DNA of 64,000 nt from an uncultured cyanobacterium. GTDB taxonomy: Bacteria > Cyanobacteriota > Cyanobacteriia > Cyanobacteriales > CAWUOF01. Shown here piece after piece: positions 915 through 59,399 of this stretch. The stretch lies in the NCBI GenBank assembly GCA_963744145.1, contig CAVUSO010000001.1, forward strand, positions 320,001-384,000, given 5' to 3'. The notes beneath the pieces are model-generated. The model had not been told where the DNA came from and ran no database searches. It saw only the letters and a program-made list of their open reading frames with translations. Both the position numbers and the translations under genes were made by a program. How positions within the stretch are numbered: the first letter of the stretch is position 1; each line of letters opens with the position of its first letter.

Positions 915-954
915 GGCAGTTTTCCAAATTAGAGGTAGGGGGAATATAAAGGGT

Positions 955-2166
955 TTATCTATTAGCTGCAACTACTTCTTCTTGTCTACCTTGTAGCCAT
1001 TCAGCAGCATCATTATTGAATGGTGAAAGGGCACGTAACCGCTCAACAATTCCTGGCATTACAGTTAAGACTTGTTCAATTTCTGTCTCAGTTGTGTAAC
1101 GACTTAGACTAAAGCGGATCGAACCGTGAAGAATCACGTAGGGTAAACCCATTGCTCGCAAAACGTGGGAAGGTTCTAAGGAGCCTGAAGTACAAGCAGA
1201 ACCAGAAGAAGCACAGATTCCATATTGATCTAATGAAAGTAAGATTGCTTCCCCTTCAATATATTTGAAACCAATATTAGTGGTGTTAGGTAAGCGATTA
1301 GCTGGATCACCGTTGACTTCACAATCAGGAATATTTGAGAGCAAAGTTTTTTCTAAGCGATCGCGTAATCTGCCTTCTCGTTTAATTGCTTCCGGGAGAT
1401 GTAGTAATTCTAATTCTGCGGCTTTTCCTAAACCAATTATTCCAGGTACATTCTCAGTTCCCGCTCTCCGTCCCCGTTCTTGATGTCCACCAATTAACAA
1501 GGGACGGAAGTGAAAACCGCGTCGCACATATAAGGCACCAACACCTTTAGGAGCATGTAATTTATGACCGGATAAGGTGAGTAGGTCAATGGTACTGTTC
1601 TTCATATTGAGAGGAACTTTACCAACTGCTTGCACCGCATCAACATGGAAAATTGCACCGTATTCTTTAGCTAATGAACCGATTTGTTCGATGGGGAAAA
1701 TTGTACCGGTTTCATTGTTAGCATACATCGTCGAAACTAAAGCTGTGTTTCCAGTTAATGCTGCTTCCAATTCCATCAAATCTAATTGTCCCTGACGGTT
1801 CACTGAAAGATAGGTGACAGTGTAACCTTGTTTTTCCAGTTGTTTACAAACATTTATGACCGCAGCGTGTTCGACTTGGGTAGTGATAATATGCTTTCTA
1901 TTTGGTTGAGCAGCTAAGGCAGCACGAATCGCTGTATTATTACTTTCACTACCGCAACTGGTAAAAACAATTTCTGCATCATCAGCTCCCAAAAGACCTG
2001 CAACTTGTGCCCTGGCTTGTTTTACTGCTTTTCCGACTTTCCCACCAAAGGTGTGCATACTGGAGGGATTACCATAATGTTCGGTCAGGTAGGGTAGCAT
2101 TGCTTCTAATACTAAGGGATCTACCTTGGTCGTGGCGTTATTATCTAGGTAAATACAAGTTGGCAT
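955..2166 (-). CDS. nifS: Cysteine desulfurase NifS
   Basis: YLDNNATT, SGHK PLP lysine, SSGSACTS catalytic Cys; lies between nifB and nifU. Confidence 0.97.
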   Translation of the reverse strand: MPTCIYLDNNATTKVDPLVLEAMLPYLTEHYGNPSSMHTFGGKVGKAVKQARAQVAGLLGADDAEIVFTSCGSESNNTAIRAALAAQPNRKHIITTQVEHAAVINVCKQLEKQGYTVTYLSVNRQGQLDLMELEAALTGNTALVSTMYANNETGTIFPIEQIGSLAKEYGAIFHVDAVQAVGKVPLNMKNSTIDLLTLSGHKLHAPKGVGALYVRRGFHFRPLLIGGHQERGRRAGTENVPGIIGLGKAAELELLHLPEAIKREGRLRDRLEKTLLSNIPDCEVNGDPANRLPNTTNIGFKYIEGEAILLSLDQYGICASSGSACTSGSLEPSHVLRAMGLPYVILHGSIRFSLSRYTTETEIEQVLTVMPGIVERLRALSPFNNDAAEWLQGRQEEVVAANR

Positions 2167-2229
2167 AGTCTTGTCCTTTGTGGGAATTGAAGATGGGAAA
2201 TATGGGGAAGTGGGAATTATTTCGATTAC

Positions 2230-3672
2230 TTACAGACAACCGACGATTTCAGGAACAGCTTCGGTGCTTTTGAGAATATGGCGATCGTAAAATGCCCGGG
2301 CTACTTTTTCGATCACGTCGTAGGCTTCAACTACAATTAATCCTGCTGTTTCTAGATCAGCTTTCGGACATTCACCTACTTTGGAAACTAGAATTGCTTT
2401 ACAGTCAGCGATCGCTTTAATGGTGTGTTCTAAAGTCGCTTCTTCACCATAACCGCTTTGACAGTAATGATCGATTTTGCGATGACCAACAAATTTAGCT
2501 TCGTTAGCATCTACTTCATAAATTTGAAACTCTTTCGCGTGACCGAAGTGTTGATTAACTAAACCTCCACCTTTAGTAGCTACAGCAACCAGAACCTTTG
2601 GACTATCCGCAACTTTTTGAGTCGGTTTAACTTTTTGCTTGGCTAATTTCAATTCTTCTTTGAATTTCTCAATTCCAGCATGAACTTCTTGCCGTGTTTC
2701 TATGTTATAATCTGACTCCATTTCCATGAACTTATCTTTGGTGAATTCTTGACTTCTGTCTTCACCTAAGAGTCCCACTGCATCAGCTCGACATTGACGA
2801 CAGTGACGCATCATCTTCATGTTACCAGCACAGTTATCTTGGACTGTTTTTAGTTCTTTTGGTGTTGGACCACGTTGACCATTTAGACCAAAATATGTGC
2901 CATGCTCTGGAGCAGAAATTAGCGGCATGATATTGTGGAGAAATGCTCCTTTGGAACGAATCACTTCATTTACTTCTGGTAAATGGTGGTCATTAATTCC
3001 TGGAATCATCACCGAGTTAACTTTGCACAGAATGTCAGCTTCTTGAAGTGCTTGTAAACCTTCCATTTGTCGTTCGTGGAGGATTCGAGCTGCTTCAATT
3101 CCTTTGTAGCGTTTCCGACGATAATGAACCCAAGGATAAATTTTCGCTCCGATTTCTGGATCTACCATATTAATAGTGATGGTAACGTGATCCACGTTCA
3201 GCTGCTTAATCCTGTCTACATAATCGGGCAACATCAAACCGTTAGTTGATAAACAAAGCTTGATATCTGGAGCTTTCTCGGCAATTAATTCAAAGGTACG
3301 GAAAGCTTTTTCTGGATTTGCTAGAGGATCTCCGGGACCGGCAATTCCTAATACACTCATTTGGGGAATTTTGCCCGCAATTACTAATACTTTGTGGGCT
3401 GCTTCTTCCGGAGTTAGTAATTCACTAACAACTCCTGGACGACTTTCATTGGCACAGTCATATTTACGGTTACAATAGTTACATTGAATATTGCAAGCAG
3501 GAGCAACAGCTACGTGCATTCTCGCGTAATGATGATGTGCTTCTTCACTATAACAAGGGTGGTTTTCGATCCGTTTTTTTAGTTTTTCGTCAACGTTGTC
3601 GGTAGAAGTACCACAGCTTGAAGAACTACAACCGCTAGAGTGATTAGTAAGGATTCCAGGTTGATGTGTCAT
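2230..3672 (-). CDS. nifB: FeMo-cofactor biosynthesis radical SAM protein NifB
   Basis: HPC motif, CNIQCNYC radical SAM motif, CRQCRADA, C-terminal NifX-like domain. Confidence 0.98.
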
Positions 3673-3914
3673 TGAATTACTGGGGGTTTAGTGGGTTGAT
3701 AAATCGCTACAGTAAATATGAACAATTAGATTCATTAACTTTTCCCGGAATCCATTGGTTAATTTGGCTTTTAGTATTTGTTTGATGATTAACAATTACC
3801 TTAATCAAAGTACCTTTGGCGGGTTAAGCACTTGGCGTTATGAGATTTATAGCAGCCAGTAAATTCTGGGTAGGAATGACCGGGCTGGATAAAATTTATT
3901 AAACTAATTAAGAC

Positions 3915-4641
3915 TGTACTCAAAATCTGTAATCCTTACAGGGCAAGGGAAAAAAGAATTTTCAAAAAAAGTTAGGGCTAGAGGTACGAGTATTTTTTAT
4001 GGGAAATTCAGGTATTTAGGTAGCAGATAACGGGTATTTCTGTACTCAAATGTAACCCTGTTACTGTCTAGGTTTGATTGATATTTATGGTGTTTTTTTT
4101 GAGTATTTGAGCTTGTACTCAAACGTCTTGAAGAGAAAAAATTAGGACTAATTGTGGCGCGATCGCCTAGAAGATTATTCAATTTAGTTCTGTATCTAAT
4201 ATAGCATTTTTTTTTCCAGTTGCCACTTTTTTCTTTTTTGTTGACAAAACTGATTAATTGTATTTAATGATACAGAAAAAATCAAAATCATCAGAAGTGA
4301 TTGGCAGCAACCGCAACATGATGAATCATGCCTACTAATACTTTAGGATATAAACTGTTAACGAGTATCTAAATATACAAAAATTTCCAAATTCAAAATT
4401 TTTGGTAGGGCTGAATATTGATGCACATAAGTTATTTAGAAACGATGAGTACAATTTTTAGTGGTCAAAGCCACTAGATAAATAGTCTGAAAGACTTACA
4501 GAGTATAGATTTATGCCTGAGTACATAAATACTGATTCTCGGTCTGATCAATACTTATACATATAGCAAAAAATACTTGTCCCCATAGCCCTTAAAAAAA
4601 AAGAATTCCTGTCAGAGCAAGACTTTCAGGACGTGAGTACA
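3915..4641. promoter_or_regulatory. Divergent nifB/nifP promoter region with six TGAGTACA boxes (putative CnfR/PatB-dependent cis elements)
   Basis: TGTACTCA at 3915, 4041, 4114 (oriented to nifB) and TGAGTACA at 4446, 4518, 4634 (oriented to nifP); this motif is known from cyanobacterial nifB upstream regions. Confidence 0.75.
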
Positions 4642-4750
4642 TTGCTAATTATTTTAAGAAGTTTAATCTAGGTGAGTAAAATTACCCGATTTTTCCCTAT
4701 CTGATATAAGAGCAGGATATAAATCACAGCTTTTTACCCCCCGAAAAGCA

Positions 4751-5563
4751 ATGCTACAGACTTTTACCCCTTTATTAAGAGTTAAACCGATTCCACCAGA
4801 AAAACTCGATGCTGAAGATCGGACAACTACTCAAGCAGTAGAACGGAAGATAAAACCTATTCATCCCTTTTTTCATTGGTGGGAAACAGTCCAAGCTGAT
4901 TTCCAGATTATTTTTGAGCGTGATCCTGCTGCTCGTAATTGGTTAGAAGTTCTTTGCTTTTACCCAGGTTTTCATGCTTTAGAGTTACATCGGATTGCCC
5001 ATTGGTTAAATAATCGGAAAATTCCCTTTTTTCCCCGTCTGATTTCTTATCTAACCAGGTTATTTACAGGAGTGGAAATTCACCCTGGTGCTGTGATTGG
5101 TAAGGGGGTATTTATCGATCACGGGATGGGAGTAGTCATTGGGGAGACAGCGATCGTCGGAGACTATACACTCATTTATCAGGGTGTGACTCTGGGAGGA
5201 ACAGGAAAAGAAAGTGGTAAACGTCATCCTACTCTTGGTCAGTATGTAGTGGTCGGAGCTGGAGCAAAAGTTCTAGGAAATATTGAAATTGGTGATCATG
5301 TTCGGGTTGGTGCAGGTTCAATTGTCCTCAGAAATGTCCCCTCCCAATGTACAGTGGTCGGAATTCCTGGTCGAAATATTTGTCCAATCCAAAAGTCCAC
5401 TTGTCCTTTAGACCATGAGCAAATCCCAGATGTAGAAGCTATAGCAATTCGTACTTTAGTCGATCGGATTGAGCAACTAGAAGAATTAGTTAAAAGTCAG
5501 TATGAACTGCAACAGAAGCAGAATCAAATAGTTAATCGTGAAAGGATTGAGGTGATGCTATGA
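4751..5563 (+). CDS. cysE: Serine O-acetyltransferase (NifP)
   Basis: ERDPAA, hexapeptide repeats EIHPGAVIGKGVFIDHGMGVVIGET, KRHPTLG; nif context. Confidence 0.95.
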   Translation: MLQTFTPLLRVKPIPPEKLDAEDRTTTQAVERKIKPIHPFFHWWETVQADFQIIFERDPAARNWLEVLCFYPGFHALELHRIAHWLNNRKIPFFPRLISYLTRLFTGVEIHPGAVIGKGVFIDHGMGVVIGETAIVGDYTLIYQGVTLGGTGKESGKRHPTLGQYVVVGAGAKVLGNIEIGDHVRVGAGSIVLRNVPSQCTVVGIPGRNICPIQKSTCPLDHEQIPDVEAIAIRTLVDRIEQLEELVKSQYELQQKQNQIVNRERIEVML

Positions 5564-6693
5564 AGAGCGCCAATATAAATAAAACAATTCACATTAATGA
5601 TACAACACTACGTGATGGTGAACAAGCAGCAGGAGTGGCTTTTAATCTTGAAGAAAAAGTAGCGATCGCCACATTTTTAGATGCGATCGGTGTGCAAGAA
5701 TTAGAAGTTGGGATTCCCATAATAGGTCATGAAGAAGCTAGAGCCATTCGGGCGATCGCGGATTTAGGACTAAAAGCCAAATTAATCGGTTGGAATCGTG
5801 CTGTACCATCAGATATTCGGGCAGCGATCGCTTGTGGATTAAAACAAGTACATATCTCCGTACCTGTTTCTCCTATCCTGATCGAGGCTAAATTTCATGG
5901 GCAGTGGCGAACCATGTTAGAGTGCTTAGAAGAGACAATTAAGTATGCACTTGATGAAGGACTAGCTGTATCAATAGGTGGGGAAGACTCTTCCAGAGCT
6001 AATGAAAATTTCCTCTTAGATGTAGCATTATGTGCCCAAGAATGGGGAGCTTTTAGATTTCGCTTCTGCGATACAGTGGGAATTCTTGATCCGATCGCTA
6101 CCTATCAAAAAGTCAGCCAACTTGTCTCTAACCTATCTATTCCCATCGAGATGCACACCCATAACGATTTGGGATTAGCAACTGCTAATGCTTTAGCAGG
6201 AATCAAAGCTGGTGCTTTGTCAGTCAATACAACAGTCAATGGTTTAGGAGAAAGAGCCGGTAATGCTGCTTTAGAAGAAGTAGTAATGGCCCTCAAATGT
6301 ATCTATAAAATTGACCTGGGAATAGATACCAAACGTTTATTAGAATTATCACGTTTAGTTGCTCAAGCTTCTAATTGTCCAGTGCCACCTTGGAAAGCAA
6401 TTGTCGGAGCAAATACCTTTGCTCACGAATCTGGTATCCATGCACATGGAATCTTACAAAACCCTGTCACCTACGAACCTTTTGACCCCCAAGAAGTCGG
6501 TTGGGTTCGTCGTTTAGTCGTGGGTAAACATTCCGGTCGGCACTCAATTAAGCATTTTTTTGCCGAGCATGGGATGAACCTGAACCCAGAGGAAACCCAA
6601 TCAGTTTTGGAAGCAGTACGCGATCGAGCAGTGCAATCAAAACACAGTATGACGACAGAAGAACTGCTCAATTTAGCTACCCAAGGGAGATAA
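5560..6693 (+). CDS. nifV: Homocitrate synthase NifV
   Basis: DTTLRDGEQ, HTHNDLG, GLGERAGNA, HESGIH; nif context. Confidence 0.95.
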   Translation: MKSANINKTIHINDTTLRDGEQAAGVAFNLEEKVAIATFLDAIGVQELEVGIPIIGHEEARAIRAIADLGLKAKLIGWNRAVPSDIRAAIACGLKQVHISVPVSPILIEAKFHGQWRTMLECLEETIKYALDEGLAVSIGGEDSSRANENFLLDVALCAQEWGAFRFRFCDTVGILDPIATYQKVSQLVSNLSIPIEMHTHNDLGLATANALAGIKAGALSVNTTVNGLGERAGNAALEEVVMALKCIYKIDLGIDTKRLLELSRLVAQASNCPVPPWKAIVGANTFAHESGIHAHGILQNPVTYEPFDPQEVGWVRRLVVGKHSGRHSIKHFFAEHGMNLNPEETQSVLEAVRDRAVQSKHSMTTEELLNLATQGR

Positions 6694-7277: not shown

Positions 7278-7401
7278 GTAGGGGCGAAGCATTCGGGCGA
7301 TAATTCATCACTTAAATTGTACCCTGAGCGTTCCCTGAGCGAAGTCGAAGGGCGGAGTCGAAGGGCTATTAATTTTATATCCGAATGCTTCGCCCTTCTT
7401 C
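7278..7401. repeat. REP-like palindromic element (GGGCGAAGCATTCGG...CCGAATGCTTCGCCC) carrying a nested double small-repeat insertion
   Basis: Perfect 15-bp inverted arms; homologous to inverted copies at 59400-59475 and 59496-59592. Confidence 0.85.
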
Positions 7402-7806
7402 GCCGATATCTCCCAAAAAAAATCTTAACTGAATTTATTTTAATATATAGTTGATCTGTTGGTTTCATAAATGGTAAGGGCAAAGCATTTCGGTAATATT
7501 ATTCTTCCCTTCGACTACGCTCAGGCTAAACGCTTCAGCAACCATTTATGCGCCGAAATGCTTTGCCCCTACGGTTAACTGAACTGTATTGGCTGATAAG
7601 TTCTTCGCTGATATCTCCCAAAAAAAAATCTTAACTGAATTTATTTTAATATATAGTTGATCTGTTGGTTTCATAAATGGTAAGGGCAAAGCATTTCGGT
7701 AATATTATTCTTCCCTTCGACTACGCTCAGGGTAAACGCTTCAGCAATCATTTATGTGCCGAAATGCTTTGCCCCTACGGTTAACTGAACTGTATTGGCT
7801 GATAAG
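7396..7806. repeat. Tandem direct duplication of about 205 bp, each unit containing a GGGCAAAGCATTTCGG...CCGAAATGCTTTGCCC hairpin
   Basis: 7396-7600 and 7601-7806 are near identical. Confidence 0.92.
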
Positions 7807-7904
7807 AATTAGGAGAAAATTGATGTTTTCGTTGAAATAAGTGCCAGAATTAAGCTTAATACTGAAATTGTTATATTTTACAGTTTACAAGTCTTTACGC
7901 GAGA
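7807..7904 (-). repeat. Conserved GUN4 3' element, copy 1
   Basis: Sense strand TCTCGCGTAAAGACTTGTAAACTGTAAAATATAACAATTTCAG...AAGCTTAATTCTGGCACTTATTTCAACGAAAACATC aligns with the copies at 9582, 17316 and 58993. Confidence 0.85.
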
Positions 7905-9377
7905 AAAAAACTGATAGATCGTACAGGACTGATCCAACAAATTACCCCACGCATAAAAATTCCCTACCCCCCATATACCCCACCATCCCCAACTTGCCGC
8001 AGCGGGGAGGTGACCAAAACGTGCGAATGCGGTGCTAAATGTTAGGTCACTATAGTCCAACCATTTTTCTCCTTTCTTCCATCCTACTTTTATAGCAAAT
8101 TTACGTTTTATTACGCTATCTGCATTTGGATGTCCACCAACATCTTTACTCTCCCATATCTGTTTTTGAACGCTAAACCCAAAACGACCATCAGAGTATT
8201 TCATCCATAACTGATCTATAGTGCGAAAGTCTTTACAGGGAAATTTTAACCAATCATCACCAGTGAGATATCTTTCTTTTGTATTAGCAGCTCTAAGTAC
8301 AAGATCATAAGTTTTTTGATCAGCCTCTTTCCATAACCTATCAGCTAATAAGTTACAGAGATGAGTGTAATCTATATCTCTTTCACTTTCAAGAATAATT
8401 TGAGTTTGTCCAGATACTGGTGATTGGGAAAATTGTGCGTTAGGCGTTGATATATTGGGTATTGACTGACGTACTTGTTTGTTAGGTACTGATTTAGAAC
8501 TAAGCATTTGCAATACTTCACTAGCAGACTGATAGCGATCGCCCAAAGTAACCGATATCATTTTATCTAAGATCATCGCTAAATCATTATTAATATTGAC
8601 TAGCGATCGCCATACCCATTTCATTTGATAAAAGTCAAACAGTTTATCGACATAATTACCGTTTTGTTCTTCTAATAAACAACCCGTCAAAAGTCTAATA
8701 CAAGTAACACCTAAACTATATAAATCACTAGCGGGAAAAGCATGACCCTGTAGTTGTTCTGGAGCTGCGTAACCAGGAGTACCAATATTTGTACCTGCTC
8801 TTGTAAGAACAGTACCCGTAAGTTGCTTGGATACTCCAAAGTCAATTAACATCAAACGATTATTGGCATCTCTAATAATATTATCTGGTTTAATATCTCT
8901 ATGAATTACATTCTTTTGATGCAGAAACTCTAAAACAGGTAGAAGTTGATTTAATAAATTCCTAATCTTTTCTTCATCAAATCTGCCGTTCTGTTGTAAT
9001 TCCTTCAATAAATCTTTTCCATCAATGAACTCTTGTACTAAATATAACCGTCCATCCTGTTCAAAAAATGCTAGCAAATCTGGTATTTGGGGATGTTTAC
9101 CTAAATCTTTTAATCTGACAGCTTCTTGTTTAAATAATTCTGTAGCTTTTTGTAATGCACTACCACCTTGCAACTGAGGTAGAAATTGTTTAATCACACA
9201 GAATGTGCCCAGTCGTTGTTCGTCTATTGATTTGAATGTTCTCCCAAAACCACCCTCTCCGAGAAATTCTACTGCTCGATAGCGATCGCCCAGTAACAAC
9301 CTATTACCGCAGCGCACACAAAACTTTGTCCCAGATGGGTTGATATTCTCACACTCAGGGTTTAGACATAAGCTCAT
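7878..9377 (-). CDS. Ser/Thr protein kinase with N-terminal Cys4 zinc ribbon and C-terminal GUN4-like domain
   Basis: CLNPEC..CVRC, GEGGFG, HRDIKPDN, DFG, APE; GUN4 motifs IDQLW..YSDGRFGFSVQKQIW and GHLP. Confidence 0.93.
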   Translation of the reverse strand: MSLCLNPECENINPSGTKFCVRCGNRLLLGDRYRAVEFLGEGGFGRTFKSIDEQRLGTFCVIKQFLPQLQGGSALQKATELFKQEAVRLKDLGKHPQIPDLLAFFEQDGRLYLVQEFIDGKDLLKELQQNGRFDEEKIRNLLNQLLPVLEFLHQKNVIHRDIKPDNIIRDANNRLMLIDFGVSKQLTGTVLTRAGTNIGTPGYAAPEQLQGHAFPASDLYSLGVTCIRLLTGCLLEEQNGNYVDKLFDFYQMKWVWRSLVNINNDLAMILDKMISVTLGDRYQSASEVLQMLSSKSVPNKQVRQSIPNISTPNAQFSQSPVSGQTQIILESERDIDYTHLCNLLADRLWKEADQKTYDLVLRAANTKERYLTGDDWLKFPCKDFRTIDQLWMKYSDGRFGFSVQKQIWESKDVGGHPNADSVIKRKFAIKVGWKKGEKWLDYSDLTFSTAFARFGHLPAAASWGWWGIWGVGNFYAWGNLLDQSCTIYQFFSRVKTCKL

Positions 9378-9581
9378 AACTTGTCAATAATCCACAGGTT
9401 TCGTGTATAAATAATAGCGGACAGTTAGCCCAAATGTCCAGTGAGGTGTCTTGTTACGGTGTGTTAAGCATTTTGTAGGCGATCGCTTAGATTGTGCGAG
9501 GTTTGATTGTGGGTTGATTAGAGGGCGATAGCTTTGGTTAGGTTTGGGGAGTGCGATCGCATATTTAGAATGATGTTATTC

Positions 9582-9707
9582 TTAGCTTCTGTGTCAGGTA
9601 TTGAGTTAGGGAAAAGCTGATTTTTTCGTAGAAATTAGTACCAAATTTAAGCTTGACAAATGACATGAAATTTTTATAACTCACAGGTTACAAGTCTTTG
9701 CGGAAGA
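9582..9707 (-). repeat. Conserved GUN4 3' element, copy 2
   Basis: CGCAAAGACTTGTAACCTGTGAGTTATAAAAATTTCA...TGTCAAGCTTAAATTTGGTACTAATTTCTACG...AACTCAATACCTGACAC. Confidence 0.85.
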
Positions 9708-11877
9708 TAAGAAACCAACCAGTCAGCTTATTCCGCAAATACGGACTACAATTCCCAAAAAGACCGGAAACGCCTGCCGGGAGGTGGCCAAGTGGAGCGG
9801 TAGTGTTCAAGGTTAGGTCATTATCGTTCAACCAATTGCCTCCTTTTCTCCATCCTACTTTATCAGCAAATTTATGTATTATTTCATAACCTGCATCAGG
9901 ATGTCCACCAACATCTTTACTTTCCCAGATTTGTTTTTGAACGCTAAACCCAAAATGACCATCAGAGTATTTAATCCATAACTGATCTATTGTGCGAAGG
10001 TCTTTATAGGGAAACTTTAACCAATCGTCATCATTGAGATATTGTCCATTTTCACAATTAGCAGCTTTGAGTACAACCCTATAAGTTTCTTCATCAGCTT
10101 CTTTCCATTTACCAACAGCTAATAAGTCACGGAGAAGACTGTAATCTATTTCTATTTCACTCTCAAGAATAAGCTCTAGTTGCATTTTACAGTTTGCAAG
10201 TCTTTGTGCGAGAAAAGATGGTTTCAACCCTCCAAATCCCTCACGCCCCACATCTCCTGTGCCCCCAATCCACTGTTCCGGTAATATAATACCTACACAA
10301 GGGAAGTGGCCTATAGGTGCATCGGTATTAAATGTAAGATTGTTATAATCTAACCACTTTCCTCCTTTTCTCCATCCTACTGTATCACCAAATTTACGTT
10401 CTATCTCTATTTCTTCTTCTATTCCTGCGTTTGGATTTCCACCAACAGTTTTACTTTCCCAGATTTGTTTTTGGACACTATATCCAAAACGACCATCAGA
10501 ATATTTTACCCATAGCTGATCTATGGTACGAAGGTCTTTACAGGGAAACTTTAACCAATCATCACCATTGAGATATCCGTCTTTTTCACGATTAGCAGAT
10601 TCAAGTAAAAGATGGTAAGTTTTTTCATCAGCATCTTTCCAGTAACCAGCAGCTAATAAGTTTCTAAGAGGAATGTAATCTATATCTCTTTCACTGTCTA
10701 GAATAAGTTCTGCTGCTGTTATATTTTGTTGTGGTGACGATGATATTACTTCAATTTGGTTTTGTGGATGTGATGTTAATTCTATTACTGGCTTCATGTC
10801 TTGATTTATTGTTTCATTTAATTCAGTAATAATCCTTTGCTGAATTTTTTCTACATCTGCATCACGTAAACATAAATGAACACTAGCCCATTCCTCTAAT
10901 TCTTTAATAACTTTATCATCTAAAGGATAATTTTTAGAAATTTTTTGTCTATATTCTTCTTCATAACGTTTTAAGCTTTCGTGATATAATTGATGATGCT
11001 TTATAACACTACTTATTATTTCTTCAGCTTGCTCATCAGAAAGCTGTAAGTTCTCTTGTTTTGTTTTTAAAATATCACGATTAAGCTTAGATATTTCTCC
11101 ATCTTTAATTCGCATTTCAACTTCCTGACAAAATCTTTTCTCAGGGGTAGGAGCCATACTTATCAAAATATTATATCCTTCATTATCTAGAATAATTTTA
11201 GGCTCCATTTTGGGCTTGACTTCCTTGACTTTTGCTTTGGCATATTTATGTAATTCTTGGATATGAATTTTACCATCACCATCTGTATCAGCAGCACCAG
11301 TTTCAATACCTTCTACTAGATGCTTTGTATAAACCGATAATTCAGAGCCTTCATGTTGAAATGAAGTCTGATTTTTTGAGGAAGAAGCTAGTATTACTCT
11401 TCCCTCTGCACCTAATTCTTTATCTAATAAATCAATATCTATACCTTTAGGTTGCCAACCAATCGCAAAAGCACCGCTATAACAACAGTCTAAAATAATT
11501 ATTTGACGCTTTGCATAGTTACCATGCTTTGACATTTTTTGGATGAAACTAGCTGAAGCAGCAGTGGCTAGGAAATTATTTTTTGTGGTAATCCGAGTTG
11601 CTAGATAAAGTTGACCATCATCGTCTTTAATACCATGTCCAGAAAAAAATAGTAGAATTAAATCATCTTTATTACTACTTTGAAATAGTTTTTGAATTTC
11701 TTCAGTCATCTGAAGGTATTCGGGATTAATTAAAAAATTAACACTATCAAACCCTCCCATTTCAGGATTTTCTAATACCCGTTTCATTGCCTTTACATCA
11801 TTAGGTGGTGCAGATAAAGGATTAATGTCTTCTCCATATTCGCTAACACCTATTAGTAATGCTATTTTTTTAGGCAT
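9688..11877 (-). CDS. Caspase-family (peptidase C14) protein with two tandem C-terminal GUN4-like domains
   Basis: KIALLIGVSEY, FSGHG and DCCYSG (His/Cys dyad intact); two GUN4 repeats. Confidence 0.9.
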   Translation of the reverse strand: MPKKIALLIGVSEYGEDINPLSAPPNDVKAMKRVLENPEMGGFDSVNFLINPEYLQMTEEIQKLFQSSNKDDLILLFFSGHGIKDDDGQLYLATRITTKNNFLATAASASFIQKMSKHGNYAKRQIIILDCCYSGAFAIGWQPKGIDIDLLDKELGAEGRVILASSSKNQTSFQHEGSELSVYTKHLVEGIETGAADTDGDGKIHIQELHKYAKAKVKEVKPKMEPKIILDNEGYNILISMAPTPEKRFCQEVEMRIKDGEISKLNRDILKTKQENLQLSDEQAEEIISSVIKHHQLYHESLKRYEEEYRQKISKNYPLDDKVIKELEEWASVHLCLRDADVEKIQQRIITELNETINQDMKPVIELTSHPQNQIEVISSSPQQNITAAELILDSERDIDYIPLRNLLAAGYWKDADEKTYHLLLESANREKDGYLNGDDWLKFPCKDLRTIDQLWVKYSDGRFGYSVQKQIWESKTVGGNPNAGIEEEIEIERKFGDTVGWRKGGKWLDYNNLTFNTDAPIGHFPCVGIILPEQWIGGTGDVGREGFGGLKPSFLAQRLANCKMQLELILESEIEIDYSLLRDLLAVGKWKEADEETYRVVLKAANCENGQYLNDDDWLKFPYKDLRTIDQLWIKYSDGHFGFSVQKQIWESKDVGGHPDAGYEIIHKFADKVGWRKGGNWLNDNDLTLNTTAPLGHLPAGVSGLFGNCSPYLRNKLTGWFLIFRKDL

Positions 11878-11890: not shown

Positions 11891-12268
11891 TTATGTATTA
11901 GACAATAAATCTTGAACAGTTTCTTTTGTTATAGGTAAATTTTGGCTTGTTGTTTTTATTTTAATTTTTTTATCTCCATCTTTTGTAATTTCAAGTTCTA
12001 TTTCAATAGGTTTATCTTGTAGACGCTCTTTAAACCATGCAAAAACAAATTGAATATTAAATAATTTCACTACAGTTGTAATAGACCCAAGTAATGTCTG
12101 AATGCTTTTTTTATTTAGGTCTATATTTGGGTCTTCAGTAAAATCAGCTTTTTCAACTGCATCAATTTCACGTAATTCTTGCAACAATTTTTCAGTCAAT
12201 TCTAATAATTCGTCATCTTCTAATGTTGGATCTGCTAAACCAAAAGTTATTTCAACTAGCTCTGTCAT
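11891..12268 (-). CDS. Small caspase-associated protein (EACC1-like by size, pattern and position)
   Basis: 125 aa, 13 bp upstream of the caspase gene on the same strand; 'ELLELTEKLLQELREID' helix and beta-rich C-terminus. Confidence 0.55.
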   Translation of the reverse strand: MTELVEITFGLADPTLEDDELLELTEKLLQELREIDAVEKADFTEDPNIDLNKKSIQTLLGSITTVVKLFNIQFVFAWFKERLQDKPIEIELEITKDGDKKIKIKTTSQNLPITKETVQDLLSNT

Positions 12269-12612: not shown

Positions 12613-13515
12613 TCAAAGGCTAAATATTCTCTCATCAGTTAATACCTGCATAGATTGTCTTTTCTCCAAATTTTTCCAATGTTTCATAGCTTCTTTATAA
12701 CGCTCTTTTAATGCGCTTGCATCAGGTTTATTACAGTTATGCTTATTTAATTTTAAGAATGTATTATCATATTGCTGATAATGGCTTTTTTCTAAGCTAG
12801 GATGGATATGAATTTTTTTATTTTCATCAATTGCTATAAGATGAGCATCAAAAAGCTTATGAATATCAACACAAAGAAGCAATCCATTAGAAGGATCATT
12901 GTTTTGGTTTTTTTCGTAAGGCTCTATATGAGCAGCTTCTAAAAGTATTTGAATATCAGAATCAGTAATTAGACAACGATAATTATACAAATTTAACAAT
13001 TGTAGGCGGAATTTATACTGTCCTAGTCTATTAGCTAGTCTATTAGATTTAGATTGTATAAAATTTATAACATAAGGATCTGAAATAATAGCTCGATTAA
13101 GTTTCGCAAATTGAAGCTTTGCGTATTGAAAATTAGTTGATGGAAAAATAGAAAGCTGGCCATAATTTAGCTTCTCGTGATGTTTATTCAAGTAAGTTGT
13201 ATCCAACATCTTTAAGTCTATATATCCTAACTCTGCATAATCAAAAACTGCATCGTACAAATTCATTCCTTCAAAATTTGCATATTGAAGGTTTGCTCCT
13301 TCAAAGTTTGTTCCATCCAATTCAGATCCTCGAAAGTCAGCATTTTGAAGTTCTGCCCCTCGAAAGCTAGCATATTCAAGATTAGCACCCCGGAAATCTA
13401 CACCATTAAGAATCAAATGATCCAAAATTAGGTGATTTAAATCTACCGCTCGAAAATCTCGTTGCCCGTTTTCGTACTGAGCCTTAATTTTATCAATATC
13501 CATATTATGTATCAT
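12613..13515 (-). CDS. Pentapeptide-repeat protein fused to an HNH endonuclease
   Basis: A(D/N)FRG/ANFEG repeats; GQYKFR..LL..Y..RCLIT...LEAAHI..NGLLL..DIHKLFD. Confidence 0.85.
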   Translation of the reverse strand: MIHNMDIDKIKAQYENGQRDFRAVDLNHLILDHLILNGVDFRGANLEYASFRGAELQNADFRGSELDGTNFEGANLQYANFEGMNLYDAVFDYAELGYIDLKMLDTTYLNKHHEKLNYGQLSIFPSTNFQYAKLQFAKLNRAIISDPYVINFIQSKSNRLANRLGQYKFRLQLLNLYNYRCLITDSDIQILLEAAHIEPYEKNQNNDPSNGLLLCVDIHKLFDAHLIAIDENKKIHIHPSLEKSHYQQYDNTFLKLNKHNCNKPDASALKERYKEAMKHWKNLEKRQSMQVLTDERIFSL

Positions 13516-17315: not shown

Positions 17316-17419
17316 CATTAGAGAAAATTTGATATTTTTGTAGTAATTAGTACCAAATTTTAGCTTGGCAAATGGCATGAAGTTGTTAGAGCTTAAAGGT
17401 TACAAGTCTTGGCGCGAGA
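17316..17419 (-). repeat. Conserved GUN4 3' element, copy 3
   Basis: TCTCGCGCCAAGACTTGTAACCTTTAAGCTCTAACAACTTCA...GCCAAGCTAAAATTTGGTACTAATTACTACAAAAATATC. Confidence 0.85.
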
Positions 17420-18818
17420 AAAGATCCGCGCAAAACCCCCAGAACCCTCCACCATCTACTATTACCACTACACCAAGGGCCCGCGCGGGAAGGTGGCCAG
17501 AAAGAGCAGTGATGTTAAATGTTAGATTACTATAGTCTAACCAGTTTCCTCCTTTTCTCCATCCTAATTTATCAGCAAATTTGTAATACGTATTCCAATC
17601 TGCATTAGGATGTCCACTAACACCCTGACTTTCCCAGATTTGTTTTTGAACGCTAAACCCAAAACGACCATTAGAATATTTTACCCATAACTTATCTATG
17701 GTGCGAAGGTCTTTACATGGAAACTTTAACCAATCATCACCAGTGAGATATTCCTCTTGTTCACGATTAGCAGCTTTAAGTACAAGATGATAAGTTTTCT
17801 TGTCAGCTTCTTTCCATTTTCTAGTAGCTAATAAGTCACGGAGAGGAGTGTAATCTATTCCTTTTTCACTTTCAAGATTATCTTGATTTTGTGGAGCTAT
17901 TGGTTGTGAAGAAAACTCGGTTTTAGGTATTGATTTAGAACTAAGTGCTTGCAATATTTCACTAGCAGATTGATAGCGATCACCCAAAGGAACCGATATC
18001 ATTTTATCTAAAAAAACACCCAAATCATTGCTAACACTAGCATATTGTCGCCACACCCATTTCATCTTATAAAAATCAAACAACTTATCTATATTGTTGC
18101 CATTTTGTTCTTCTAATAAACAACCTGTTAAAAGTCTAATACAAGTAACACCTAAACTATATAAATCACTAGCGGGAAAAGTTTGACCCTGTAATTGTTC
18201 TGGAGCTGTATAACCAGGAGTACCAACTGATGTACCCACTCTTGTCATTACAGTACCGCTTAATTGCTTGGATACACCAAAATCAATTAACATTAAACGA
18301 TTATTAGCATCTCTAATAATATTCTCAGGTTTAATATCTCTGTGAATTACATTATTTTTATGAATAAATTCTAAAACAGGTAGAAGTTGATTTAATAAAT
18401 TTTTAATTTTTTCCTCATTAAATTTGCTGTTTTGTTGTAGTTCCTTTAATAAATCTTGTCCGTCAATAAATTCTTGTACTAAATATAGCCGTCTATCTTG
18501 TTCAAAGAATGCTAATAAGTCAGGTATTTGGGGATGTTTACCTAAGTCCCTTAATCTGACAGCTTCTTGTTTAAATAATTCTGTAGCTTTCTGTAATGCT
18601 CCACTACCTTGCAACTGAGGTAGAAATTGTTTAATCACACAGAATGTGCCCAGTCGTTGCTCGTCTATTGATTTGAATGTTCTCCCAAAACCACCCTCAC
18701 CGAGAAATTGTACTGCTCGATAGCGATCGCCCAGTAACAACCTATTACCGCAGCGCACACAAAACTTTGTCCCAGATGGGTTGATATTCTCACACTCAGG
18801 GTTTAGACATAAGCTCAT
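17400..18818 (-). CDS. Ser/Thr protein kinase-GUN4, paralog of 7878..9377
   Basis: Near-identical N-terminus and kinase domain; different linker and C-terminal tip. Confidence 0.93.
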   Translation of the reverse strand: MSLCLNPECENINPSGTKFCVRCGNRLLLGDRYRAVQFLGEGGFGRTFKSIDEQRLGTFCVIKQFLPQLQGSGALQKATELFKQEAVRLRDLGKHPQIPDLLAFFEQDRRLYLVQEFIDGQDLLKELQQNSKFNEEKIKNLLNQLLPVLEFIHKNNVIHRDIKPENIIRDANNRLMLIDFGVSKQLSGTVMTRVGTSVGTPGYTAPEQLQGQTFPASDLYSLGVTCIRLLTGCLLEEQNGNNIDKLFDFYKMKWVWRQYASVSNDLGVFLDKMISVPLGDRYQSASEILQALSSKSIPKTEFSSQPIAPQNQDNLESEKGIDYTPLRDLLATRKWKEADKKTYHLVLKAANREQEEYLTGDDWLKFPCKDLRTIDKLWVKYSNGRFGFSVQKQIWESQGVSGHPNADWNTYYKFADKLGWRKGGNWLDYSNLTFNITALSGHLPARALGVVVIVDGGGFWGFCADLFSRQDL

Positions 18819-18994: not shown

Positions 18995-19231
18995 ATGATG
19001 ACAACCAAAGAGCAATTACTTGAAGAACTTGAAACCCTTCCCGAAGAACTCATTAGTGAAGCATTGGACTACATCTGCTTCATCAAAAATCGTTATAGTC
19101 TAAAACTGGAAGCCATTCGGGCGATCGCAAAACTCGACTCAGACTGGTGGGAAAACCTCAATAACTTCACCCCTGATTTTCTGGACGAGCGATCACAGCC
19201 TAACCTGCCCAACAGAGAGGACATATTTTGA
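18995..19231 (+). CDS. Antitoxin (DUF2281-like N-terminus, VapB-like C-terminus)
   Basis: ELETLPEELISEALDYI..; ..PDFLDERSQP..REDIF; overlaps the downstream PIN gene. Confidence 0.7.
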   Translation: MMTTKEQLLEELETLPEELISEALDYICFIKNRYSLKLEAIRAIAKLDSDWWENLNNFTPDFLDERSQPNLPNREDIF

Positions 19232-32613: not shown

Positions 32614-33357
32614 TTAGTTGCCGAGATCCGCTTCGGTACATAATACAGGGTAGAAAACAGCAATAGCATGAGTCAGACGAGTTTCGTGGGAATCACCAAA
32701 AAAAACTGAAAACATAGCAGTGCAAATCAAGGCTGTTAAAAAAGTCGCTAAAATAATACCTAGCATGACATCCAAACCTAAAACGAACATATTACCACCG
32801 ATAAAATGATTCCCAGCTATTCCAAAAGCACCTCCACCAATACAACCAGTAAATAAACATAAGCATCCAGATAAGCACCCATACCACACTTCTATATTAT
32901 TACAACCCATTAATTGTCCTTGGGTCAAAGTATAATGGGTCAAAATATTACAAGGAAGGTGTCCTGAAACTCCCCCCAAGTCAAATTTAAGGTCTTTCTC
33001 ATGCAGCCATTGTCCTTCGTATCTCCAACCCACTTGATTACTAAACTTGATCAGATTATCCTGCTCTTGATCTGGCTCCGAATTTTCGACAACACTTTTC
33101 CAGATTCGTTTTTGCACACTAAAACCAAAGCGTCCTTGTGAATACTCTACCCATAACTGGTCGATCGTGCGAAGGTCAGTTAATGGGAAATTGAGCCAAT
33201 CTGTTTTCTGAAGAAATCCTTTTTTCTCACACTTAGCAGCTTGGAGCATAAGTAGACGAGTTTCTTGATCAGCTTTTTTCCATTCACCATTAGTTAACAA
33301 GTCTTCCAGGTGACGATAATCTATGCCCACTTCACTTGCTAGAATAATTTCACTCAT
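32614..33357 (-). CDS. Stand-alone GUN4-like domain protein with a C-terminal hydrophobic (transmembrane) extension
   Basis: IDQLW..YSQGRFGFSVQKRIW, GHLP, then Gly/Cys-rich hydrophobic segments. Confidence 0.85.
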   Translation of the reverse strand: MSEIILASEVGIDYRHLEDLLTNGEWKKADQETRLLMLQAAKCEKKGFLQKTDWLNFPLTDLRTIDQLWVEYSQGRFGFSVQKRIWKSVVENSEPDQEQDNLIKFSNQVGWRYEGQWLHEKDLKFDLGGVSGHLPCNILTHYTLTQGQLMGCNNIEVWYGCLSGCLCLFTGCIGGGAFGIAGNHFIGGNMFVLGLDVMLGIILATFLTALICTAMFSVFFGDSHETRLTHAIAVFYPVLCTEADLGN

Positions 33358-40113: not shown

Positions 40114-40310
40114 AATATATATTCAAATGATTGATGAATTTGTTTTCTTAATAAATCTTTAAAATTAATTGAGATAACAATAAATAACCCCCAATCTAAA
40201 AAATATGAGTTCGACGAGCTAGAATATTGGTAAAATTGAGTATTCTCATCAATCAAGTAGCATTAATCAAAGTCAAGTTATTTACTATCTTGAGATCAGG
40301 CAAAAAATTA

Positions 40311-42781: not shown

Positions 42782-42870
42782 CTAGCATTTAGCTAAATTG
42801 TCTGAGATTTTTGGGAAAATTGAGTACAATGATTAATTAAACAGAAAAATATAGTTTTTGTTAAAAATTC

Positions 42871-45330: not shown

Positions 45331-45376
45331 CTTAGAGTTTAGCTTAAACAAAAGCTGTATTTTTTGCTAAAAATCA

Positions 45377-47902: not shown

Positions 47903-47991
47903 CTAGCATTTAGCTAAATTGTCTGAGATTTTTGGGAAAATTGAGTACAATGATTAATTAAACAGAAAAATATAGTTTTTGTTAAAAATTC

Positions 47992-50439: not shown

Positions 50440-50485
50440 CTTAGAGTTTAGCTGAAACAAAAGCTGTATTTTTTGCTAAAAATTC

Positions 50486-58529: not shown

Positions 58530-59012
58530 GATCATCAGGAACACGGTATAAATGCAAATCTTGCACTACAAAGTGAAAGAAATATAGATTACGCTCCTCT
58601 ACGTGAATTATTAGCTGCTGGTAAATGGAAAGATGCTGATTGGAAAACTTATGAGCTTGTACTTAAAGCTGCTAATCGTGAAAAAGAAAGATATCTCACT
58701 GGTGATGATTGGGTAAAATTTCCCTGTAAATATCTTCGCACTATAGATCAGTTATGGGTAAAATATTCTGATGGTCGTTTTGGTTTCAGCGTCCAAAAAC
58801 AAATATGGGAGAGTAAGGAAATTGGAGGATATCCCAAGGCTGGAAGTGCGATCAAGCGCAAATTGGGTGATAAAGTAGGGTGGAGAAAAGGAGGCAATTG
58901 GTTGAGCTATGATGACCTAACTTTTAACACCTCGGCTCCCGTGGGCCACCTTCCGTTGTTGGGGGGTTGGTGGGTTTGGGGGGGGTCTCTTCTCTCGCGC
59001 AAAGACTTGTAA
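58530..59012 (+). pseudogene. Start-less GUN4-like domain cassette (160 open codons), missed by the ORF track
   Basis: Frame is open from the TGA at 58527 to the TAA at 59010: ..LQSERNIDYAPLRELLAAGKWKDAD..IDQLWVKYSDGRFGFSVQKQIW..GHLPLLGGWWVWGGSLLSRKDL*; no in-frame ATG. Confidence 0.88.
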
Positions 59013-59116
59013 CCTGTAAGATATAACAATTTCAGGCCATTGTCAAGCTTATTTTTGGTACTAATTTCTACGCAAACATCGGCTTTTTCCAAACTCAATA
59101 CCTGGCACTGACCTAG
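58993..59116 (+). repeat. Conserved GUN4 3' element, copy 4
   Basis: TCTCGCGCAAAGACTTGTAACCTGTAAGATATAACAATTTCAGGCCATTGTCAAGCTTATTTTTGGTACTAATTTCTACGCAAACATC..AACTCAATACCTGGCAC. Confidence 0.88.
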
Positions 59117-59399
59117 CAACTGGCACGAGTCGTCCGGCGGGAGTCCGTCTAGTCCGTCTGATGTTAAAATAAAAAATCGCAAGATTAGGCCAGGTGAATA
59201 GAACAACTTAAACTAAGAATTATTAAAAAACTGTGCAGCGACTTTTGGGTCATAGCAATTAGCCATCACAAACTTTTCAGCCACTTGATGAATTTCAGAG
59301 TTAGTCGGTTCCGATCGCATTTTTCCCAGATTACCCATTAGAATAATAGCTTTCGCGATCGGACTTCACCGTTAAGGATATTTTGGGGATATCGGAATA

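Follow-up and report, generated by a model that had tools for sequence, protein, structure and literature searches.

Several described systems resemble the gene ends analyzed here. Canonical GUN4, a cofactor of Mg-chelatase (structures 1Y6I, 1Z3X and 4XKC), has the same core fold as the cyanobacterial GUN4-like proteins under study, which match PF05419 with E-values of 1e-34 to 1e-75. In contingency loci, a slippage-prone tract within a gene shifts the reading frame and the products are alternative protein forms. As in REP/RAYT systems, short conserved DNA lies here at a gene 3′ end between convergent genes, and as in REP/RAYT/TIRYT systems its neighbor is a Y1 (HUH) gene that is best matched by a RAYT model, conserved and probably domesticated. 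With diversity-generating retroelements, too, the C-terminal region is variable and conserved DNA spanning the stop codon comes after it. Two reports (PMC7517822, PMC7159879) describe retroelement-diversified cyanobacterial signalling proteins with N-terminal partners of the same kinds as those seen here, kinase, caspase, TIR and CHAT domains being reported in the former.

The 64-kb stretch of DNA that was analyzed (the window) contains five copies of a 34-nt block that follows GUN4-like cores. They are listed here with the segments upstream of them; frames are counted from the GHLP motif in each GUN4 core, and the triplets are those at +17/+24/+31.

7871..7904, minus strand: block copy 1, ending the kinase-GUN4 gene 7878..9377 in frame 0 (..SRVKTCKL*); TAA/TAA/TAA
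7905..8003, minus strand: variable G+T-rich segment of copy 1, from the GHLP motif to the block, ending in a T7 run
8004..8393, minus strand: GUN4-like core (PF05419) of copy 1
9674..9707, minus strand: block copy 2, ending the caspase-GUN4-GUN4 gene 9688..11877 in frame 1 (..FRKDL*); TAA/TGA/TAA
10180..10213, minus strand: internal block copy in gene 9688..11877, behind its first GUN4 domain, in frame 2 (..FLAQRLANCKM..); CAA/TAA/CAA
9778-10167, 10300-10701 and 17487-17876, minus strand: further GUN4-like cores
17386..17419, minus strand: block copy ending the kinase-GUN4 gene 17400..18818 in frame 1 (..FSRQDL*); TAA/TAA/TAA
58566-58955, plus strand: GUN4-like core of a lone fragment
58993..59026, plus strand: block copy ending the lone GUN4 fragment in frame 1 (..LSRKDL*); TAA/TAA/TAA

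A first-pass annotation of this DNA had given variable segment lengths of 0, 1, 2, 1 and 1 mod 3, which agree with these frames. All five blocks are present, and the sequence at 7871-7904, which lies within the interval 7868-7904 named there, reads as given. The internal copy is read through, its remaining TAA being out of frame, and the second GUN4 domain of the gene begins directly after it. PF05419 profile matches above the curated cut-off were obtained for genes 7878..9377, 9688..11877 (two domains) and 17400..18818 (E 3e-34 to 2e-75), and also for gene 32614..33357 (E 4e-36). The lone fragment is open from 58530 to 59012 on the plus strand, with no start codon yielding 100 aa or more. The block matches exceed chance: an 11-nt core had nine matches with at most one mismatch (shuffle mean 2.18), and a 20-nt stretch further downstream had four, compared with none in shuffles; the best matches to the 34-nt consensus scored 26-32, the maximum in shuffled flanks being 20. 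The odd frame of the copy at 7878 follows the T7 run, and one extra T would place it in frame 1; its frame 0 could be a homopolymer assembly error. Three-frame use in the wider sample is independent of this copy.

That sample comprised 80 loci from other cyanobacteria plus the window and gave 94 GUN4-like copies with usable 3′ DNA. With a block called at 22 or more matches out of 34 to the consensus (shuffles reach at most 20), 80 of the 94 copies carried it, and in 71 of these it was terminal. Frames 0, 1 and 2 were used by 26, 21 and 24 terminal copies, with stops exactly at +24, +17 and +31, respectively; these counts are not independent, because many loci are orthologues from close Microcoleus species. 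All three stops, spaced 7 nt apart, were kept in 62 of the 71 terminal copies, which extends the claim of a stop in every frame well beyond the window, and all frames were closed within 36 nt in 64 of them, as against 255 of 943 control ORF ends. Database proteins gave a similar picture: among 120 tails, 25 belonged to class A, 27 to class B and 38 to class C (the remaining 30 were unclassed by the search pattern), and the three classes match the peptides of the three block frames, the outcome of a check that the first-pass annotation had suggested.

The frame of the block does not follow GUN4 phylogeny. On a tree of the GUN4 core, 32 frame changes were counted, compared with a shuffle mean of 33.8 and with 144 of 500 shuffles as low; this estimate is weakened by the few columns (128) and by the 38 of 68 inner branches left unresolved. 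Small, strongly supported GUN4 clades contained all three frames, and of two plasmid orthologues, L081 ends in frame 1 and L082 in frame 0. This scatter over the tree, the frame counts and upstream segments of 35-200 nt all agree with the earlier proposal that the block tolerates upstream segments of any length. On the other hand, one tail was common to six Microcoleus species, and turnover is therefore not fast everywhere.

It is hardly credible that one frame is the true one and the others are pseudogenes or assembly errors, or that three old subfamilies each have their own tail. Stops ahead of the block in three copies (one at L016, two at L051) and the T7 run before the only frame-0 copy of the window would suit a single true frame, but frame use is near-equal in the 71 terminal copies, which come from many independent assemblies, and also in the 120 database proteins. 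The single frame with rare pseudogenic frameshifts that had been set out as the contrary outcome was not seen. Old subfamilies are difficult to reconcile with frame classes that are not clades and with one DNA consensus for all three.

These comparisons support the view that what cyanobacteria conserve in the block is a DNA element and not a protein motif of one frame. One DNA consensus and one per-column conservation profile were found in all three frame classes, and conservation ran on past every stop of the block. The 14 nt past the frame-1 stop were equally well conserved in frame-1 genes (0.204), in which these bases are non-coding, and in frame-2 genes (0.196), in which they are coding. 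In addition, synonymous sites of the adjacent GUN4 core showed much lower conservation than the block. Conservation at the nucleic-acid level, as first suggested, was thus borne out. The check for a lack of codon periodicity suggested there gave a qualified result: periodicity is almost absent from the block, with third-codon-position mismatches of 0.247 versus 0.197 and 0.218, whereas conserved residues of the adjacent core give 0.339 versus 0.073 and 0.017, but the small third-position excess in the block is significant (permutation p = 0.002), implying some protein-level selection in the frame in use.

According to structure prediction, the frame-2 block peptide (..LASRLVNCNI) makes up the terminal GUN4 helix. 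Tails were modelled for frames 1 and 2, each from about 21-22 sequences. In the frame-2 model a helix occupies residues 137-150 with pLDDT of about 80, and the model superposes on solved GUN4 structures over the full length (TM 0.85 over 158 columns for the 152-residue query; 4XKC); the frame-1 tail had pLDDT of 40-54, and of these two forms only the frame-2 form was predicted to have the GUN4 fold including its C-terminal helix. Alignment with solved GUN4 chains reaches GHLP, and these chains go on for about 20 residues past its end. At four loci (L014, L017, L058 and L071) the block DNA has diverged and a frame-2-like peptide is kept, and internal read-through copies retain only the first half of the block. 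That frame 2 would encode the native terminal helix of the fold had been missed in the first-pass annotation.

The fusion-type copies depart from canonical GUN4: G+T-rich DNA is inserted between GHLP and the last helix, this helix goes untranslated in about two thirds of the copies, and their fusion partners are kinase, caspase, TIR, CHAT, TPR and other domains. The inserted segment, from GHLP to the block, ranges from 35 to 200 nt and consists of 41% G, 31% T, 15% A and 13% C (the GUN4 core has 31% A). It starts exactly where conserved DNA ends and was unalignable between orthologues whose flanks are 85-100% identical. A single base in a G run separates the sister orthologues L005 and L008, of which the first ends in frame 1 and the second in frame 2, L030 and L068 differ by a 9-nt tandem duplication, and alleles of the segment are mosaics. 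The segment therefore appears to change through slippage and recombination. Variability had been regarded as programmed in the first-pass annotation; this view gains no support from the differences between close relatives, all of which are ordinary: one base gained or lost in a G run, tandem duplication of 9 nt, and recombination that leaves mosaics.

The 1-nt indel in a G run that separates the frames of two orthologues recalls contingency loci. Unlike in these loci, a three-frame stop block follows the tract, and long homopolymers occur in only a few segments: G runs of at least seven were present in 9 of 68 (shuffle mean 8.8), and no homopolymer excess beyond base composition was found in the 68 segments. 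Such runs had a density of 19.9 per 10 kb in the segments, compared with 0.47 for G or C runs over all loci and the window. Since the variable tract sits at the 3′ end, a switch would alter only a short tail (helix or none) and not turn expression on or off. Off-frame stops numbered 3.6 per 100 codons versus 4.26 in shuffles, and 24 of the 68 segments were open in all frames; the deficit beyond composition is slight, and selection against off-frame stops was rejected as an explanation.

In contrast to targets of diversity-generating retroelements, which are of constant length with changes at template adenines only, the segments are unalignable and range in length from 35 to 200 nt. A scan of 38 of the 45 window ORFs of at least 100 aa revealed no reverse transcriptase, and none was recurrent among the neighbors of the 80 loci. 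With no reverse transcriptase found in these ORFs and neighbors and no variable region of constant length, a retroelement target was rejected.

Downstream, the block opens a conserved spacer of roughly 140 nt, at whose far side lies a convergent transposase-like gene of the Y1 (HUH) type, and conservation extends to the distal box TACCTGGCAC in 36 of the 71 copies. The following features of the window belong to this part.

9573..9673, minus strand: conserved non-coding spacer following block copy 2; its distal box (sense TACCTGACAC) occupies 9591-9600
59027..59108, plus strand: conserved non-coding spacer after the 58993 copy, ending in the distal box TACCTGGCAC at 59099-59108
59018..59046, minus strand: sigma-70-like promoter match (TTGACA, 17 nt, TATCTT; 10/12), antisense, inside the conserved spacer
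59213..59326, minus strand: relic of a Y1 (HUH, IS200-like) gene, C-terminal 36-40 codons approximately, ending ..AAQFFNNS*, near the commonest C-terminus of the family

Nucleotide constancy might also be due to regulatory DNA: an antisense promoter or other protein-binding site would fix the bases, and its A+T-rich -10 would supply the stops by accident. We detected an antisense sigma-70-like match in 34 of the 71 copies; in 31 copies it has one fixed place and 17-nt spacing, and a second scan method agrees at 59046..59018. Scores of at least 9/12 were reached on the antisense strand in 29 of 71 copies (sense strand, 2 of 71), compared with 1.4% of background windows. In a 29-sequence alignment the promoter stretch was gap-free save for one base in one row, and A2 and T6, which vary least among known -10 boxes, fall, by our own mapping, on highly conserved columns. 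However, these criteria find no match in 37 of 71 copies, conservation peaks in columns outside the promoter hexamers (the pyrimidine tract and next bases), and internal read-through copies retain the first half of the block only. We consider a regulatory site an unlikely explanation for this constancy.

Structure was also sought in this DNA. RNAalifold gave 0 consensus pairs on the sense strand, and two hand-picked hairpins paired in 76.8% of cells, compared with 77.4% in shuffles, with no compensatory changes. Single-stranded DNA folding of six elements on both strands was no better than shuffles (z-scores of -1.06 to +1.45). Over the window, Rfam gave 0 hits at gathering score, with one chance-level hit (E 3.5), and no tRNA genes were found. 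A structured RNA was thus rejected for want of consensus pairs, covariation or an Rfam match, and an intrinsic terminator because no terminator-like site was present at the blocks.

The reading that we favor, and regard as probable though not secure, is that the block joins two origins, the last GUN4 helix and the spacer to Y1, and that upstream slippage or recombination brings it into any frame. Its first half would be coding DNA for the last GUN4 helix, read in frame 2, and its downstream part a conserved non-coding spacer toward the convergent Y1 gene, which is intact in a minority of cases and a relic in most. A low-complexity G+T-rich insertion of 35-200 nt between GHLP and the block would gain and lose bases by slippage and be exchanged by recombination among alleles and paralogues, and as a result the reading frame would meet the block in any of three phases. 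Three tandem stop-bearing heptamers shut every frame within 17-31 nt, because 7 = 1 mod 3. The pyrimidine tract and the CG-rich bases after it give Leu/Phe/Ser-rich residues followed by Ser-Arg in every frame. Each copy would therefore yield a protein that is complete and carries one of the three short tails, the native helix being present in the frame-2 tail alone.

Under this two-origin reading, we infer that the constancy of the block reflects the summed demands of three frames, imposed by frequent switching and paralogue exchange, together with a non-coding role of the spacer, which may be a protein-binding site or an antisense promoter. Variation would come from ordinary slippage and recombination, not from a dedicated enzyme.

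The Y1 gene deserves separate consideration. Y1 similarity was detected within 450 nt of 24 of the 71 blocks and was not detectable beside the other 47; the window has the gene only as a relic. At related loci the convergent gene matches Pfam Y1_Tnp (E 8e-19), and its best match is the NCBIfam model of REP-associated tyrosine transposase (69-72 bits, cut-off 80). The HUH and Tyr motifs were intact in all six full copies examined. Viewed from the Y1 side, five of six plasmid records have Y1 facing a block-bearing GUN4-like gene. The family comprises 849 proteins at E ≤1e-10, identity to the query is nowhere below 67% in the best 120 of the 849, and source names are cyanobacterial wherever given. 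Apart from Y1, recurrent neighbor families of the 80 loci consisted only of Microcoleus synteny and a small EACC1-like ORF beside caspase genes.

These features make the Y1 gene a candidate for the enzyme behind tail changes. If variation were targeted, block and spacer would be the recognition and nicking site of the Y1 (HUH) enzyme, a single-strand DNA endonuclease, which would create indels, duplications and replacements upstream by nicking, strand transfer or stalling of replication. The sensor tail would then be hypervariable by program, much as retroelements diversify similar cyanobacterial signalling proteins. Linkage of block and Y1 that is tight from both directions is consistent with this possibility, as are intact catalytic motifs in a highly conserved family, which suit a domesticated gene, and a variable zone that begins exactly at the edge of conserved DNA. 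In addition, partial copies of the first half of the block were found inside 3 of the 68 segments (six motif matches versus a shuffle mean of 0.28), and the partner domains are those reported in PMC7517822 on retroelement-diversified proteins. However, no cleavage-type hairpin was supported, 47 of 71 blocks lack a detectable Y1 and the window has a relic only, every change between close relatives has an ordinary explanation, and tails are stable over six Microcoleus species. Targeted diversification is accordingly rather improbable in our judgment. We give only low credence to the broader idea that sensor tail, block and Y1 form one functional unit in which a domesticated single-stranded DNA transposase, acting at the block, remodels the 3′ end of a sensor gene by indels, duplications or replacement of segments.

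The likeness to REP/RAYT systems is partial. In motifs (NHVH / WE / YIHANP) and length the Y1 gene is, by our own reading, similar to subclass 2.1 as defined by Quentin et al. 2018 (PMC6006769), who report that genes of this subclass have no REPs nearby. In contrast to REP/RAYT systems, we found no supported palindrome, no GTAG tag and no flanking inverted repeats, block copies in the GUN4-centred sample are tied to one domain family and are not dispersed, and there are several Y1 copies, each facing a GUN4-like gene. An IS200/IS605 insertion sequence was also rejected: two conserved ends were not found, and the loci cease to be homologous at the start codon of the Y1 gene.

It is quite improbable, in our view, that the spacer, and perhaps the block, is the terminus of a selfish REP/RAYT-like or IS200-like element into which the host frame runs in any phase, the DNA being uniform because such an element would spread or be copied. 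The RAYT model as best match, albeit below cut-off, points in this direction, and so does the Y1 frame, which in some proteins itself enters the distal box in three frames: C-termini ending in VPGI (11), CQVS/T (8) and ARY (1) were seen among 120. Moreover, block copies occur on conjugative plasmids, and at L004 a tandem array of seven 21-nt repeats, similar to the stop region of the block, is found upstream of the Y1 gene. Against this, the first half of the block encodes the native GUN4 helix in frame 2 and is hence host DNA, and no shared upstream end or inverted repeats were found around the Y1 gene among the loci. Of 96 block matches in 1.37 Mb of sampled DNA, which was GUN4-centred, 85 directly follow a GUN4 core and the remaining 11 immediately precede GUN4-fusion genes, which leaves none scattered elsewhere. 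Conservation of the block beyond that of core synonymous sites also argues for selection, not for recent spread of a module.

The literature searched contained no account of the block, of its tail classes or of a GUN4-Y1 link, and the RAYT work in it is general only. A gene end conserved as DNA phylum-wide and used in three frames is a rare natural case, and it bears on how overlapping constraints shape sequence. The Y1 HUH link offers a testable partner and DNA site for transposase-like genes of obscure function. If the Y1 enzyme is what drives changes in the tail, retroelements would not be the only way in which signalling and conflict proteins of cyanobacteria diversify. If sensor, block and Y1 were indeed one unit, this would be a previously undescribed form of targeted protein diversification, in which the block guarantees a complete protein in any frame and the terminal helix region of tetrapyrrole-type sensors controlling kinase, caspase, TIR and CHAT effectors is toggled or varied.

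The block also matters for annotation. Gene callers and family models will split the C-termini of one family into three apparent motifs, and tiny spurious ORFs are produced at the block; one such 15-residue "protein" is listed in PMC9529120.

The window contains six GUN4-like cores (Pfam PF05419) and derives from a filamentous cyanobacterium with nif genes: nifU, nifS and nifB are found at 15-6693, together with a homocitrate-synthase-like gene. The cores are distributed over the following genes, with respect to the 34-nt conserved block that ends GUN4-like genes:

7878..9377, Ser/Thr-kinase-GUN4 fusion, block present
17400..18818, Ser/Thr-kinase-GUN4 fusion, block present
9688..11877, caspase fusion with two GUN4 domains, block after each domain
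58530..59012, lone GUN4 fragment, block present
32614-33357 (-), sixth GUN4-like gene with a different, long hydrophobic tail, without block

Proteins joining GUN4 to kinases, caspases, trypsin or TIR are already known (PMC7159879). In the five window cores other than that of 32614..33357, the GHLP motif is followed by a variable segment and then by the block, and the frames and stops, checked on the window sequence, agree with those read in the first-pass annotation. In the four terminal window copies, DNA similarity runs about 100-125 nt past the stop codon and then ends abruptly.

Three-frame use was also evident in protein databases. The GUN4 part of one kinase retrieved 2320 proteins at E <=1e-5, and three recurrent tail peptide classes were present among the best 120 of them.

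Tail classes among the best 120 of 2320 proteins
Class 1, ..(L/F)SR(K/R/Q)DL, 25/120
Class 2, ..FSR(V/A/I)(E/K)TC(K/N)L, 27/120
Class 3, ..SLA(S/Q)RLV.C(N/K)I, 38/120

The other 30 tails fell outside all three patterns; on inspection several of them look like variants, and some of the rest are cut short. This classification bore out the proposal that the C-terminal classes are three translations of one DNA block.

At the DNA level, one genome per species was searched with an alignment of five cores cut before their tails, so that the sample was not biased toward the block. The search yielded 80 loci (from Nostoc, Microcoleus, Trichodesmium, Okeania, Crocosphaera, Scytonema, Tolypothrix and others), and tblastn on these and the window gave 97 cores, 94 of them with usable downstream DNA. 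The block was detected in 80 of the 94 copies, with 22-32 of 34 matches compared to at most 20 in shuffled flanks; 71 copies were terminal, 6 were read through within multi-GUN4 proteins and 3 had an earlier stop. Terminal copies used frames 0, 1 and 2 (counted from GHLP) in 26, 21 and 24 cases, and every stop fell exactly at the place predicted by the frame. A dominant single frame was not found among them, which supports the earlier view that the block tolerates any frame. All three stops were retained in 62/71 terminal copies, and all frames were closed within 36 nt in 64/71 blocks, compared with 27% (255/943) of the ends of other long ORFs in these sequences. The block consensus consists of three tandem heptamers, each with a stop; because 7 leaves a remainder of 1 on division by 3, every frame has a heptamer of its own. 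Use of three frames with a stop in every frame is real and general. Our literature search found no description of such a three-frame block at the ends of GUN4-like genes, nor of an association between GUN4 and the Y1 (HUH) transposase-like gene treated below.

Frame showed little relation to GUN4 phylogeny. A tree of 71 cores required at least 32 frame changes, compared with 33.8 ± 2.3 for shuffled labels (144/500 shuffles were as low), a rough figure, as the tree rests on 128 columns and most of it is unresolved. Its supported branches alone forced 6-7 frame changes per class, and two clades with good support, of 3 and 6 rows, each included all three frames. Frame also differed within a sister pair (L005/L008), whose variable segments differ by one base in a G run, a difference that also shifts the frame.

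Block consensus and per-column conservation were identical across the three frame classes, in support of the claim that conservation acts at the nucleic-acid level. When each copy was read in its own frame, mismatch rates in the block at codon positions 1, 2 and 3 were 0.197, 0.218 and 0.247, whereas conserved-residue columns of the adjacent GUN4 core gave 0.073, 0.017 and 0.339; codon-like substitution was therefore not found in the block. The third-position excess is small (permutation p = 0.002; the sequences are not independent of one another). Bases past the frame-1 stop were conserved to an equal degree, with a mismatch of 0.204 where non-coding versus 0.196 where coding, and conservation dropped only gradually beyond the last stop (0.35). 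By our reading of the mismatch rates, several third positions of frame-2 codons are invariant; in the other two frames these sites are codon positions 1 or 2 or belong to a stop, which suggests that the constraints of all three frames add up in the block.

Structure prediction offered a possible origin for this DNA. AlphaFold modelling of a frame-2 domain, based on an alignment of 22 sequences, put the block peptide in helix 137-150 (pLDDT about 80), preceded by the variable stretch (pLDDT 54). Over its whole length this model matched solved GUN4 structures with TM 0.83-0.85 (151-158 columns for 152 residues). Alignment to solved GUN4 chains reaches GHLP, and the chains extend about 20 residues past the alignment end. 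In the frame-1 model (the window's lone copy, 21 sequences), the tail is unstructured (pLDDT 40-54). In addition, four loci (L014, L017, L058 and L071) have DNA that drifted from the block and retain a frame-2-like C-terminal peptide. From the frame-2 helix, frame-1 disorder and drifted copies, we conclude that the block probably derives its first half from the DNA that encodes the last GUN4 helix; from the frame-2 and frame-1 models, we also conclude that this helix would be lost in frames 0 and 1.

The variable segment is G+T-rich (G 41%, T 31%, A 15%, C 13%, versus A 31%, C 18%, G 27%, T 24% in the core), with Gly, Val, Leu and Trp abundant in the tails, and 24 of 68 distinct segments are stop-free in every frame. 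G runs of at least 7 were present in 9/68 segments, a density roughly 40-fold above that of G or C runs over all loci and the window but equal to the composition expectation. Between close relatives, length changes included a 9-nt tandem duplication (L030/L068), and in mosaic alleles the core end and tail had different nearest relatives (L061 versus L010 and L030). Microcoleus kinase orthologues were 85-100% identical over kinase, core and 3' flank, yet carried at least six unalignable tails; one tail was common to six Microcoleus species. Two Nostoc plasmid orthologues likewise had conserved flanks and unalignable tails, and their frames differ. Within 3/68 segments, the first half of the block recurs in partial form. 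Between paralogues whose kinase DNA is unrelated, identity was 85-98% over the GUN4 core and 70-85% over block and flank, suggestive of sequence exchange between such genes.

Among plasmids, the 3' element of the window (block plus conserved non-coding spacer) matched two from Nostoc, one of which had an annotated, convergent 'transposase' 67 nt past the stop. This is a Y1 (HUH) protein (Pfam Y1_Tnp, E 8e-19); its best NCBIfam model was REP-associated tyrosine transposase at 69-72 bits, under the cut-off of 80. The distal conserved box of the element encodes the last codons of the Y1 protein. Y1 similarity started within 450 nt of 24/71 terminal blocks, convergent in every case, with four long matches (>=180 codons) and others down to about 16-20 codons, and at least the distal box was retained in 36/71 copies. 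The window has a Y1 relic behind the lone GUN4 copy, at 59213-59326. Only three Y1 matches in the loci were not behind a scored GUN4 core end: one at a contig edge, one forming the far half of an interrupted copy, and one abutting a TIR gene that ends just past the first GUN4-domain residues. In this last locus (L062), the TIR gene (3597-4121 (+)) stops after ..SEKGVDY and enters the Y1 3' end (4069-4830 (-)); the GUN4 core apparently disappeared in one piece with its tail, block and spacer. From the Y1 side, the gene faced a block-bearing GUN4-like gene in 5/6 plasmid records, the sixth being a truncated copy. In N. punctiforme pNPUN02 (L083 4831-6057), an ISL3 transposase separates a CHAT-GUN4-like gene from block and Y1 pseudogene.

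The Y1 family comprises 849 proteins at E <=1e-10, the best 120 being at least 67% identical; source names, where given, were all cyanobacterial. Most of the listed proteins (P0121-P0240) end in ..AAQFFNDS or a close variant, and some continue into the distal box, where three different frames are used (VPGI 11, CQVS/T 8 and ARY 1 of 120), so the spacer behaves as DNA open to both convergent genes. By our reading of a published table, not by computation, Y1 motifs resemble subclass 2.1 of Quentin et al. 2018 (PMC6006769), for which that paper reports no associated repeats. HUH and Tyr motifs were intact in 6/6 full copies. No inverted repeats or shared far end bounding the Y1 gene were found. 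That the Y1 enzyme makes the tail variation, the 'programmed' reading, appears unlikely. The account with most support is fourfold: the last-helix DNA is preceded by an indel-prone G+T-rich insertion; the three-heptamer stop block closes all frames; nucleotide conservation would reflect the constraints of the three frames added together, along with a non-coding spacer function; and the unit is physically tied to the conserved Y1 HUH gene.

Searches of the spacer found no consensus RNA fold, covariation, excess ssDNA folding or Rfam match. An antisense sigma-70-like promoter match was present at one fixed position in 31 copies (window 59046..59018 by promoter scan) and reached at least 9 of 12 in 29/71 versus 1.4% of background windows; 37/71 copies fell short of the promoter criteria, and the best-conserved block columns fall outside the match.

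Block-like sequence was also observed ahead of genes. Microcoleus kinase-GUN4 genes carry a partial block in gene-sense orientation a few bases before their start codon (L003, L006, L010, L011, L020, L026, L030, L060, L063 and L069; about 9006-9101), and one lies upstream of a TIR-GUN4 gene in the same orientation (L002 9182-9218). Upstream of the Y1 gene in L004 (about 11360-11520), seven tandem 21-nt repeats resemble the stop-bearing block part.

Several further features of the window were recorded. The sixth GUN4-like gene, 32614-33357 (-), has an N-terminal core and a tail of ~110 residues (Gly/Cys/hydrophobic), and is directly downstream of a TPR-CHAT gene (33430-35973 (-)). A small acidic ORF at 11891-12268 (-), just upstream of the caspase-GUN4-GUN4 gene and with counterparts in 9 loci, may be its EACC1 partner, since NCBI names a related caspase protein 'caspase, EACC1-associated type'. 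Downstream of the kinase-GUN4 gene 7878..9377, two direct repeats with a 206-nt period (about 7400-7830, - sense) begin where the spacer of this copy breaks off. A pentapeptide-repeat/HNH nuclease fusion adjoins a DDE transposase split into two ORFs (12613-13515 (-), 13707-14525 (+)). Three Uma2-family putative endonuclease and two PIN-domain genes, one PIN paired with DUF2281, are scattered around the GUN4 copies (56006-57305 (-), 62500-63063 (+), 57709-58478 (-), 19228-19632 (+)). Two DUF928 genes and a CHASE2 histidine kinase come before a tandem set of five paralogues with an N-terminal two-partner-secretion (TPS) domain (40227-52930 (+)).
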